DNA of 13,226 nt from a virus (Duplodnaviria > Heunggongvirae > Uroviricota > Caudoviricetes), in IMG/VR virus record IMGVR_UViG_2563366869_000004. One strand, written 5' to 3'. The notes below the pieces were generated by a model. The model made no database searches and was not told the DNA's origin. It saw only the letters and a program-made list of their open reading frames with translations. Within the stretch, counting starts at the first letter, position 1. Every line of letters begins with the position of its first letter. This document shows positions 7,261-11,945 of the stretch, piece by piece. A program made the position numbers and the translations under genes.

Positions 7261-7656
7261 CTAACCTCGCATGTCAAAGCCAGATTTCTGAAAATCTCTG
7301 TAGACTTCCGGATTGTTGAAGGCCGGAAATTTGGCTTTATGAGCTGCGGACTTTATCGCTTCGCAATAGGCTTTATCACCGTTACTGGTAGATATTTTTA
7401 ACGCCGTGCCATCCTGAGAGAATTCCATATGCAACCTGCATTTTTTCCCTTTCCAGTTATGCGGCTCATCAAGTTTGGCATTAATTGCAGCTCTGATTCC
7501 CCGCGCTTGCGCCCCCCATTCATCCTGATCATCCCAGCGTCCTGAACTGCAACTACCTGTAGCAGTAGTTTTGTGGCAATCTGAAGGGTGTAAAGGTGTG
7601 CATCCCGCAACAAAACCGACCCAAAAAGTCAACATAACGATTTTCTTTAATCCCAC
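7261..7656 (-). CDS. Lipoprotein with divergent TolA C-terminal (domain III)-like domain, paralog of the upstream gene
   Basis: GTG at 7656 preceded by GAGGAG at 6 nt; TAG at 7261-7263. Signal peptide MGLKKIVMLTFWVGFVAGC with lipobox VAGC and Thr at +2. C-terminus KKCRLHMEFSQDGTALKISTSNGDKAYCEAIKSAAHKAKFPAFNNPEVYRDFQKSGFDM aligns with the upstream paralog and with the TolA domain III C-terminus, both Cys conserved. Confidence 0.75.
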   Translation of the reverse strand: MGLKKIVMLTFWVGFVAGCTPLHPSDCHKTTATGSCSSGRWDDQDEWGAQARGIRAAINAKLDEPHNWKGKKCRLHMEFSQDGTALKISTSNGDKAYCEAIKSAAHKAKFPAFNNPEVYRDFQKSGFDMRG

Positions 7657-7806: not shown

Positions 7807-8235
7807 TCAGGGTTTAAAATCCAGCACCCCATTTTGAAATACTTTATATACTTCCGGCGAAGGGGGGGCAGGTATATCAGCATTCTTTATCGCATTCATC
7901 GCTTCACGACATAAATCGAGGTCTCCACTTTCTCTTTTAACCTCCAGTAGAAGGCCATTCGGGGCCATATGCATTCTCAGTGTACACTCTTTTCCTGAAT
8001 ACTTACTCGCATCCCCGAACTGTTTTTCGATGGCGCTCTTGATTTGATGGGCATACAGACGGATATCCTCACTAACATCAGAAGTACGTTCAGATGAACT
8101 CACATACTGTGTCTCTATTGCTTTATCGGAGTAATATGATGTACGGTCATGATAATTTGTCGATACAGCATCAGTGCACCCGATAATAATCCCACTAATA
8201 ATCAACGTAAGAATTGATGCGCTACGAAAACCCAT
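7807..8235 (-). CDS. Lipoprotein with TolA C-terminal (domain III)-like domain
   Basis: ATG at 8233-8235 preceded by GAGGA at about 5 nt. Signal peptide MGFRSASILTLIISGIIIGC with lipobox IIGC and Thr at +2. C-terminal 85 aa YAHQIKSAIEKQFGDASKYSGKECTLRMHMAPNGLLLEVKRESGDLDLCREAMNAIKNADIPAPPSPEVYKVFQNGVLDFKP matches the end of E. coli TolA as I remember it (YAGQIKSAIESKFYDASSYAGKTCTLRIKLAPDGMLLDIKPEGGDPALCQAALAAAKLAKIPKPPSQAVYEVFKNAPLDFKP), including both Cys and the terminal LDFKP. Confidence 0.85.
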   Translation of the reverse strand: MGFRSASILTLIISGIIIGCTDAVSTNYHDRTSYYSDKAIETQYVSSSERTSDVSEDIRLYAHQIKSAIEKQFGDASKYSGKECTLRMHMAPNGLLLEVKRESGDLDLCREAMNAIKNADIPAPPSPEVYKVFQNGVLDFKP

Positions 8236-9122: not shown

Positions 9123-9232
9123 TACTTAACAGAACTTTTATTTTTGACAAACATATAATGTTTTCAACAATATCCTGAGCCAGGTATATTCCAGTATAAG
9201 GCTCTGCCGGAAGGAATCTGGAAGAATGAATA

Positions 9233-9309
9233 TGGCGCGCTGTACTGGATTCGAACCAGTGACCGATTGCTTAGAAGGCAATTGCTCTGTCCGGCTGAGC
9301 TAACAACGC
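9233..9309 (-). tRNA. tRNA-Arg (anticodon UCU), phage-borne
   Basis: Minus-sense 77 nt folds as a cloverleaf: acceptor GCGTTGT/ACAGCGC (one G-U), D-arm GCTC-AGCCGGACA-GAGC, anticodon stem-loop ATTGC-CTTCTAA-GCAAT (UCU at 34-36), 5-nt variable loop, T-arm ACTGG-TTCGAAT-CCAGT, discriminator G, CCA encoded. Confidence 0.9.
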
Positions 9310-9339
9310 TGAATACCGATAATGGACCGCCATCGGGGA

Positions 9340-9357
9340 CCCCCCCCCCCCCCCCCC
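9340..9357. repeat. Homopolymeric C18 tract (G18 in the late transcript) between the two tRNA genes
   Basis: Direct count: one C at 9340 plus 17 C at 9341-9357, flanked by ggggac on the left and gca on the right. Confidence 0.9.
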
Positions 9358-9418
9358 GCACCAACAACCCTGTTATCGTGTCGTCTGCTCTTCCTGATAA
9401 GCTCATGGCGGTTTGTGA

Positions 9419-9494
9419 TGGTGGCCCTTGCTGGATTTGAACCAGCGACCTGGCGATTATGAGTCGCTCGCTCTCACCACTGAGCTAAAGGACC
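9419..9494 (-). tRNA. tRNA with CAU anticodon; closest to tRNA-Ile2 (lysidine, ileX-like), elongator Met not excluded
   Basis: Minus-sense 76 nt GGTCCTTTAGCTCAGTGGTGAGAGCGAGCGACTCATAATCGCCAGGTCGCTGGTTCAAATCCAGCAAGGGCCACCA. Acceptor GGTCCTT/AAGGGCC (one G-U), anticodon loop CTCATAA, T-loop TTCAAAT, CCA encoded. Strong resemblance to E. coli ileX as I recall it. Confidence 0.9.
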
Positions 9495-9530
9495 GGGAGC
9501 AGAATAATAACGGTCCGTAATTAATTCCGC

Positions 9531-9557
9531 AATAAAAAACCCGCTCGGTGGCGGGTT
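9531..9557 (-). terminator. tR'-like intrinsic terminator just downstream of the Q gene
   Basis: Minus-sense RNA stem AACCCGC / GCGGGUU with loop CACCGA, followed by UUUUUUAUU (plus-strand A-run 9534-9539). It sits between the pR'-like promoter and the first tRNA, as tR' does in lambdoid phages. Confidence 0.55.
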
Positions 9558-9604: not shown

Positions 9605-9632
9605 AATTTACCACAGATTCCGGAAAAATCAA
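9605..9632 (-). promoter_or_regulatory. pR'-like late promoter (putative Q-utilisation region)
   Basis: Minus-sense TTGATT (-35, plus 9627-9632), 16-nt spacer, TAAATT (-10, plus 9605-9610), immediately 3' of the Q-like gene stop (9638) and about 40 nt upstream of the terminator hairpin. TAAATT is the -10 I recall for lambda pR'. Confidence 0.45.
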
Positions 9633-9637
9633 CCTTG

Positions 9638-10459
9638 TTACCTAGTTACCTTTTTTAACTGCCGCTCAGCCCATGCTTCTTCAATATCAAACCGGGTCAC
9701 CAGCGCATCATAGAATTTCTTAACTGTTTTTTCCCATGACGCGCGTGTTATCTGGTTTGTCACCTCGCATATAGCATTAAATGCCTCCGTTGATGGTAGT
9801 CTTTCATAGCCACGACCACCACAACGCTGGCAGTCTCTGATAACAGGCATACCACGTTTTACCGACTCTTCACGGTGAATGGCGACACCACGCCCACGGC
9901 AATCCTTACAGGCGGTGGAAACCTCACCCTTTCCGCCACACTCCGGACAGGCAACTTTTACCACCTCCCTGACTTTTTTCCATTCTTCCCAGTAAGACGG
10001 ATACACACCTTTCGTACACTTTGCCCATACCGGCGGCTTACCATCCGGATACTGGACCTTGTTTGTAAAAACTACGCTTTCAATAAATTTTTCCCCATAG
10101 CAACAAGGGCACTGCTTTTTACTCGCTGCGCTGCGGGCATAATCCTCAAAAGCGTACGAAGCCATAATGCGCATCACTAACGGTTTTATTTCTGCCGGAA
10201 GTTTTCTCAACGCCGCCACACGATCGCACCGACTGAGTGCATAATCTGCCAGTAATTCTGTTGCCCGCGCCCTGTCATTCATACTGATGCCCATTTTCCC
10301 CAGGAACGCAGAAAACCCCATCTCAGCCCGATTCTGTGTCATGCCCTGCGCGGCCATCACATCAGTGATACTCAGCGCATCTTTTGACGTTGAGGCCGAT
10401 GCATCGGTCAGGCAAGGGGATTTTGGGGAGTAGTATTTCGGTAAATCTTCCAGTTTCAT
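9638..10459 (-). CDS. Q-like late antiterminator candidate (QuuQ-like) with cysteine-rich repeats
   Basis: 273-aa ORF whose ATG (10457-10459) overlaps the rusA stop (ATGA). It sits between rusA and the pR'/tR' pair, the canonical Q slot. Contains CPCCYGEK, CPECGGKG, CKDCRGRG and CQRCGGRG repeats. The Q call is by position and size; I could not confirm it by sequence. Confidence 0.6.
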   Translation of the reverse strand: MKLEDLPKYYSPKSPCLTDASASTSKDALSITDVMAAQGMTQNRAEMGFSAFLGKMGISMNDRARATELLADYALSRCDRVAALRKLPAEIKPLVMRIMASYAFEDYARSAASKKQCPCCYGEKFIESVVFTNKVQYPDGKPPVWAKCTKGVYPSYWEEWKKVREVVKVACPECGGKGEVSTACKDCRGRGVAIHREESVKRGMPVIRDCQRCGGRGYERLPSTEAFNAICEVTNQITRASWEKTVKKFYDALVTRFDIEEAWAERQLKKVTR

Positions 10460-11790: not shown

Positions 11791-11812
11791 CAGTAACCGG
11801 GTATTGTGGAAT

Positions 11813-11911
11813 ATGCCATGGGATAACAGTCCATGCTTTTACAACCTGGAAGAAATTGATCGCTGGATTGAGCGCCAGGCATCAGCGAGACCAAGACGTC
11901 ATCTTACTTGA
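11813..11911 (+). pseudogene. Possible excisionase (xis) 3' remnant upstream of int
   Basis: Plus-strand frame ending TGA at 11909-11911, 20 nt before the int ATG, reads ...MPWDNSPCFYNLEEIDRWIERQASARPRRHLT*. The EEIDRWIERQ end resembles the C-terminal helix of Xis/AlpA-family proteins. The longer frame (from 11711) starts with TTG and overlaps the DUF968 N-terminus. Weak call. Confidence 0.25.
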
Positions 11912-11945
11912 CTAAAAGCCACACTAACTAATGAGAGAAGTTGAA

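Follow-up and report, generated by a model that had tools for sequence, protein, structure and literature searches.

We found that an uninterrupted run of 18 C residues in a lambdoid prophage remnant of E. coli lies inside a decayed tRNA-Arg gene, and that the length of this run differs widely between otherwise identical strains. The tract is very probably a hypermutable mononucleotide repeat without a function of its own, which arose inside a tRNA pseudogene. Four observations carry this reading: the homology of the surrounding interval to the phage tRNA gene argN, the loss of tRNA signatures from that interval, a series of tract alleles in related genomes and the hypervariability of the tract on identical sequence backgrounds.

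A late-operon tRNA module with a decayed argN gene

The window, i.e. the whole stretch of 13,226 nucleotides that was analysed, matches E. coli chromosomes at ~99.9-100% identity and corresponds to a Qin-like cryptic prophage remnant inserted in ydfJ of E. coli. Its gene order runs from the integrase through an excisionase fragment, a truncated DUF968 gene, rusA and the Q antiterminator gene to two tRNA genes; beyond these lie a DUF3927 gene, two genes for TolA C-terminal domains, the holin gene essD, ydfR, the lysozyme gene rrrQ and tail-fibre fragments. The prophage is a deletion remnant. At 11800-11945, the DUF968 gene with its truncated N-terminus abuts the excisionase fragment and the integrase; at this site, ~6 kb of extra sequence is present in strain MSHS 472, including hokD, DUF977 and ydaT-like genes. 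Position 472 of the window, which belongs to the ydfJ fragment (1-1284), is a C, where the strains GPEC1240 and FDN-11 have a T, and RefSeq flags an internal stop in ydfJ of these two strains besides the truncation by the prophage. The features in and around the tract are the following:

9233 to 9309, minus strand: argO-like tRNA-Arg(UCU) gene (ARAGORN; Rfam tRNA, 68 bits; RefSeq relatives)
9323 to 9412, minus strand: psi-argN, a decayed tRNA-Arg gene (homologous in position and sequence to argN(TCG) of Stx2a_1447)
9340 to 9357, minus strand: homopolymer, C18 on the plus strand and G18 in the transcript
9419 to 9494, minus strand: ileZ-like tRNA-Ile2 gene, anticodon CAT (ARAGORN; Rfam tRNA, 69.4 bits; RefSeq relatives)
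9530 to 9557, minus strand: intrinsic terminator, stem AACCCGC...GCGGGTT followed by a T run (terminator scan)
9605 to 9632, minus strand: candidate late promoter, pR'-like (TTGATT, 16 nt, TGgTAAATT; found by eye)
9638 to 10459, minus strand: Q-type antiterminator gene, 273 aa (Pfam PF03589 Antiterm, 185 bits; RefSeq WP_000762863.1, 'antitermination protein')

The tract consists of exactly 18 uninterrupted C on the plus strand, as determined by direct reading and run counting, and is contained in the 109-nt interval between the tRNA genes. The preliminary description had assigned it the span 9329-9360, which does contain the C18, but the run itself is confined to 9340-9357 and the remainder of that span consists of flanking bases. 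Since both flanking tRNA genes are encoded on the minus strand and the tract lies between them, the tRNA sense strand carries G18. The run had also been called highly unusual, and it is indeed exceptional for E. coli: base composition predicts ~1e-7 C18 runs per window and ~7e-5 per 5-Mb genome, both strands included, elsewhere in the window G runs reach at most 7 nt and C runs at most 6 nt, and 1.24 Mb of related prophage DNA contained no G or C run of at least 10 nt at any other locus. The C18 is thereby confirmed as a real feature of the given sequence, far beyond chance.

The layout around the tract is that of a lambdoid late-operon tRNA module, which follows Q and a tR'-like terminator and precedes cargo and lysis genes. 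The terminator (9557-9530) lies between Q and the tRNA cluster and occupies the lambdoid tR' position. The candidate late promoter directly follows the Q stop codon and agrees with 8/12 consensus positions; because this match falls under the threshold of the promoter scan, we treat it as a candidate only. With both the Q antiterminator gene and an intrinsic terminator upstream of it, the tract occupies the late-operon position that the preliminary description had presumed, and with this lambdoid layout it may reasonably be placed in a putative late transcript. Further downstream, two adjacent TolA C-terminal-domain (PF06519) genes (7261-7656 and 7807-8235, minus strand) occupy the site where Stx phages have stx. 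One of the two is a truncated pseudogene in relatives according to RefSeq, and a role of these genes in superinfection or colicin exclusion is possible.

The interval between the tRNA genes had been regarded as a spacer. This holds insofar as the tract does lie between two tRNA genes, but the interval is itself a decayed argN gene, which had been missed. A search of phage records gave ~85-89% identity between the 321-nt tRNA region and Stx-converting phages, where ileZ, argN and argO are all annotated over the corresponding span. The ileZ-argN-argO cluster of Stx2a_1447 and phiP27 has the same order, the same strand and the same place, after Q, the late promoter region and the terminator and before cargo and lysis genes. 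Both flanking genes of the window are near-identical to ileZ and argO of this Stx2a_1447/phiP27-type cluster; the gene at 9419-9494 is labelled Met by ARAGORN and Ile by RefSeq in near-identical genomes. Two alignments in transcript orientation show that the interval is colinear with argN of Stx2a_1447, which is called as tRNA-Arg(TCG). The acceptor halves, ACCGCCA(U) and (A)UGGCGGU, and the CCA end are invariant in these alignments, and part of the D-arm and the T-stem 3' strand CCCC are likewise retained.

Unlike argN of Stx2a_1447, the interval no longer encodes a recognizable tRNA. Its anticodon-arm region has diverged at about half of its positions with unchanged length, the D region has gained a 4-nt insertion and the T-loop has been replaced by a G run. 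ARAGORN called only the two flanking tRNAs, and neither this program nor the Rfam model RF00005 (E<=10) detected a tRNA in 9310-9418. A functional tRNA gene is not what the interval presents, with both detectors silent, the T-loop lost and a loop of 3 nt in the predicted 'anticodon' hairpin; its position between ileZ and argO and its sequence homology are those of an argN-derived tRNA pseudogene. Owing to this homology, and to the absence of any tRNA call, 9412-9323 is best described as psi-argN. The minimum free energy fold predicted by ViennaRNA still resembles a cloverleaf, with an 8-bp acceptor stem and a T-arm hairpin.

An intermediate situation is found in phiP27, where no argN is annotated already, yet the TTCGAG T-loop remains, unlike in the window. 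The phiP27-type version in strain K_EC180 bears the RefSeq label 'tRNA-OTHER'. Neither the interval nor the phiP27-type versions matched a tRNA or any other Rfam family in the spacer, even at permissive thresholds. Three other Rfam matches in the region were discarded. A weak Trp_leader match covers the terminator hairpin only, and the YrlA matches are weak and attributable to chance. A 'Plastid-ycf2 5'UTR' match at 9421-9494 (plus strand; 32 bits, under the gathering score) is exactly antisense to tRNA-Ile; since the same match occurs in three other loci, the model seems to capture antisense tRNA-like sequence, and we reject a real element of this kind here. The literature searched on ileZ, argN and argO, a search that lay outside the classic Stx-phage tRNA papers, does not report the tract.

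Allelic series and hypervariable tract length

The T-arm of argN reads C-GGGG-TTCGAGC-CCCC-G, and the G18 of the window starts exactly at the T-stem GGGG. From there it spans the T-stem 5' strand (4 G) and the former T-loop, and it ends at U-CCCC-G. Relatives exhibit a series of forms at this site: the GGGG-TTCGAG form, GGGGTTCGAG, in argN, phiP27 and K_EC180; the form GGGGCCGGG in Xuzhou21; the G5CG3 form, GGGGGCGGG, in mEp460 and 2013C-4361; G6CG3 in ECMA0423 and in the GTDB E. coli representative; and G9 to G18 followed by CGGG in many strains, which reads C3-G-Cn on the plus strand. The longest allele read directly is C3GC18, in strain PEC178.

Short alleles prevail. Among the first 120 exact-flank matches listed for IMG/VR, 91 were C3GC5, 12 C3GC6, six C3GGC4 and two CCAGC6, and the remaining forms were longer, up to n=16; a targeted scan of IMG/VR recovered 13 contigs with n of at least 8 (C after G). 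The full-length interval is present in 1,775 complete E. coli genomes. An evenly spaced sample of 53 of these carriers comprised the 9-nt base allele in 43 cases, an allele 1 nt shorter in one and n=6 in two, and the total tract reached at least 12 nt in 7/53. According to this sample, ~80% of carriers have the short allele G5CG3, and extrapolation from the same 53 genomes suggests long alleles in ~200 of the 1,775. A scan of GTDB species representatives returned a single match, the C3GC6 allele of the E. coli representative, and carries no cross-species information.

Long and short alleles can share one genome, as both are present in the 13.2-kb IMG/VR contig 2695420747_000007, where two tRNA modules (L045 and L067), each 95-99% identical to the window, carry C3GC16 and the 9-nt base allele. 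In strain ACN001 and in the IMG/VR contig L126, C3GC14 is followed by GCCACC instead of GCACC, which amounts to an extra C past the tract.

Tract length varies widely on backgrounds that are otherwise the same. Nine sequences with an identical 800-nt flanking haplotype had seven different alleles, and sequences that match the window at 100% identity across both 1.5-kb flanks had total tracts of 16, 16, 17, 18, 18, 19 and 21 nt. GPEC1240, which differs from the window at four other sites in 13.2 kb, carries C3GC13. Many length alleles on identical backgrounds are the hallmark of a hypermutable mononucleotide microsatellite, and the range of 16-21 nt on identical 3-kb flanks identifies the tract as such a repeat and not as an assembly artefact. 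The preliminary description had suspected a slipped-strand hotspot and had proposed to compare tract lengths in related prophages; this comparison, with seven alleles on one 800-nt haplotype and 16-21 nt on identical 3-kb flanks, bears the suspicion out.

Homopolymer errors of long-read assemblies could account for part of this variation in length. Strain pairs with near-identical genome sizes or coordinates (EC15/EC18, ZH48/ZH49 and 61/64) have the same length, however, which argues that the variation is in large part heritable and not sequencing noise, although some noise is likely. Strain CH4797 carries C3-G-C-T-C15, with an extra T interruption that is unique among the sequences; a base-calling error of long-read sequencing is the probable cause, but the run may instead be acquiring a second interruption.

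The long alleles read are 98.0-100% similar in their Q-proximal flank (96.7% in the IMG/VR contig L125), and several have different downstream flanks. Such a pattern would fit one lineage whose run passed a threshold and diversified afterwards, a fit that falls short of proving a single origin. Short-allele sequences are about as close in the Q-proximal flank as long-allele ones.

The uninterrupted run of the window

The window differs from its relatives in one detail of the tract, the absence of the interruption. The interrupting G (fourth position on the plus strand) is kept in all close relatives that were read directly, i.e. MSHS472, GPEC1240, FDN-11, GPEC620-622, CH4797, PEC178, NC22, GZM7, ACN001, GENOMIC23-002 and 13 IMG/VR contigs. 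Read in the transcript, the closest relatives have G14-C-G3 at the same total length of 18 nt, and the interruption is a G in the window. The pure C18 is thus either a rare real G-to-C substitution or a miscalled base.

We consider it a serious possibility, without leaning towards it, that the exact allele is a base-calling or assembly error, and that the true allele is C3-G-C14 or lies 1-2 nt off, with the long tract itself being real. Such an error would account for the G at the fourth position in every close relative read directly and for the four complete genomes that share the total length of 18 nt and have a single mismatch to the window. It also agrees with the lack of a full-length 100% match in 5,426 complete genomes and of a related pure-C allele in JGI metagenomes, where two apparent matches were rejected as unrelated AT-rich contigs containing the 19-mer by chance. 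Three further positions in a tail-fibre pseudogene, 3714, 3717 and 3738, read A, A and C in the window and G, T and T in four near-identical genomes. Gene conversion from a paralogous copy of the tail-fibre gene could have produced these private differences, as could a consensus error over a collapsed repeat; they may point to an imperfect assembly or consensus, and their clustering calls for slightly more caution about the consensus quality of the window.

Against an error stands the only other uninterrupted allele that we found, the C13 of the independent contig L125, which has a somewhat different background; it implies either that loss of the interruption does occur or that the same error recurs. 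Transient misalignment is known to convert an interrupting base to match the flanking run, and a real G-to-C change by this route is plausible. An error of this kind is compatible with a functionless, hypermutable repeat, as it concerns the exact allele only.

Origin of the tract and its possible roles

The identification of psi-argN with an overgrown T-stem G run explains the origin of the tract without invoking a function. We infer replication slippage as the mechanism, neutrality of the repeat and a direction of change towards greater length. In late operons of Stx-type lambdoid phages, ileZ-argN-argO separates Q/pR'/tR' from the cargo and lysis genes further downstream. In the present prophage lineage argN has decayed, with a diverged anticodon arm and a lost T-loop, and because of this decay indels would no longer have been purged by selection. 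The G run of the T-stem 5' strand could thus have grown by replication slippage from G4 to G5 and G6; beyond ~8-9 nt it would have become a self-accelerating microsatellite, whose mutation rate climbs with its length. The lineage now ranges from 9 to 18 G ahead of the single interrupting C, and the window allele, of 18 nt like G14-C-G3, would be one in which the interruption has turned into G.

G:C runs in the T-stems of live E. coli tRNA genes are the hottest indel sites of such genes and provide a close parallel. In a mutation-accumulation study of the Foster lab, 95 of the 117 tRNA-gene indels of mismatch-repair-deficient E. coli fell into the 8-bp G:C run of the leuP/Q/V/T T-stem; serW and serX, whose T-stem runs measure 7 bp, received 5 and 2 indels and were noted as likely further outliers, and the indel rate was, according to the authors, an exponential function of run length (PMC8510543). 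As in these genes, the G:C run considered here derives from a T-stem strand, where single-base indels are frequent (PMC8510543). The difference lies in the state of the gene: live tRNA genes are held at 7-8 bp by selection, whereas the dead gene has reached 18 nt here, with natural alleles from 5 to 18.

Several points weigh on this explanation. The step from TTCGAG to GCGGG requires several substitutions, which slippage does not explain, and neutrality rests on the absence of evidence for a function. If long G:C runs are deletion-biased, the persistence and spread of long alleles could hint at some form of maintenance.

An alternative reading is a functional switch, in which a G-quadruplex or an R-loop, formed by the G tract in the RNA or on the non-template DNA strand, would modulate late read-through or the processing of tRNA-Arg(UCU), and slippage would make the setting heritable and reversible. 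We consider such a switch very unlikely. Its appeal stems from the location of the tract on the sense strand, 30 nt upstream of the 5' end of the argO-like gene and downstream of Q and the terminator, from its hypervariable length and from its putative structure. Four G runs of at least 3 nt with short loops are available in both G18 and G14-C-G3, and G18, which can give four G3 runs separated by 1-nt loops, resembles an RNA quadruplex by prediction. ViennaRNA with quadruplex energies predicts a three-layer quadruplex for G14CG3 and G18 (~-63.5 kcal/mol, compared to -32 kcal/mol without quadruplex) and none for the base allele G5CG3. The capacity of G18 to form such a structure, which the preliminary description had raised, is hence supported by modelling for the long alleles.

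Several features of the locus oppose a switch. The short allele, present in ~80% of carriers, is incapable of forming a quadruplex, and because this common allele lacks it, quadruplex capacity looks like a by-product of expansion. The tract lies outside supported open reading frames and promoter-hexamer spacers, and its lengths are continuous without on/off classes. The long alleles read appear to form one module lineage, given their near-identical Q-proximal flanks (96.7-100%), and are often situated in deleted prophage remnants, to which the prophage of the window belongs. Phage records reach at best 96.3% identity to the window and none is at least 99% identical, so that apparently no phage record carries a long allele. 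An effect of the tract on tRNA processing or read-through is speculation and unlikely to matter. Folding of the whole ileZ-psi-argN-argO precursor was abandoned as a processing test, as its minimum free energy structure misses the known cloverleaves even with the short allele.

Contingency loci of Haemophilus, Neisseria, Campylobacter and Helicobacter are phase-variable homopolymeric tracts that change by slipped-strand mispairing. The tract described here resembles them as a long poly-G/C run whose length changes at high frequency. In contingency loci, however, the repeat belongs to a reading frame or a promoter spacer and turns a gene on or off, whereas this run lies in a pseudogene between tRNA genes and has no identifiable target. 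It is part of no annotated coding sequence or promoter spacer, the promoter scan found no promoter-like hexamers around it, and a spacer promoter that would use the tract as its -35 element or spacer was rejected, as neither the scan nor inspection by eye revealed a credible -35. A regulatory, contingency-type role is accordingly highly improbable. It would be just as much of a long shot for a quadruplex or an rG:dC hybrid to act as a heritable and reversible roadblock that tunes tRNA-Arg(UCU), the TolA-like cargo and the lysis transcripts. If true, this roadblock would represent a non-coding, structure-based contingency switch in E. coli, in which slippage produces cell-to-cell variation; unless this low-probability regulatory reading holds, the tract opens no long-standing question.

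It is even harder to sustain that the tract is an artefact altogether and that the real genome lacks a long homopolymer at this locus. Most sequencing platforms have difficulty with extended runs of G or C, and the exact lengths do vary among assemblies, but runs of C12-C18 occur at exactly this place in dozens of independent complete genomes from various laboratories, hosts and countries, at least 8 C follow the G in 13 IMG/VR contigs, and near-identical strain pairs have identical lengths. A wholesale artefact is effectively refuted. The assembly error considered in the preliminary description is thus excluded for the long tract, which many independent genomes contain, and survives for the missing interrupting G, which may be an error. 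The weakest alternative, a phase-variable poly-glycine segment in an 80-aa open reading frame (9164-9406, minus strand), can be practically discounted: this frame is included in a program-made list and its translation reads RGGGGGV over the tract, but it shares its strand and part of its sequence with the tRNA-Arg gene, lacks a Pfam match, is unannotated in all RefSeq relatives checked and is not conserved among relatives, whose tract lengths are not multiples of three apart.

We therefore return to the hypermutable repeat without function as the preferred explanation. For practical purposes, the interval should be annotated as psi-argN and not as an anonymous spacer, and in E. coli genomics the locus is likely to cause errors in assembly and polishing as well as false SNP and indel calls. 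Tract length may also serve as a fast-evolving marker within clones. The locus is a lambdoid ileZ-argN-argO module with a pseudogenised argN, and it behaves like a mononucleotide microsatellite. It thus offers a natural experiment, in which a T-stem run that pseudogenisation has freed from selection has grown to 18 nt and is still changing.
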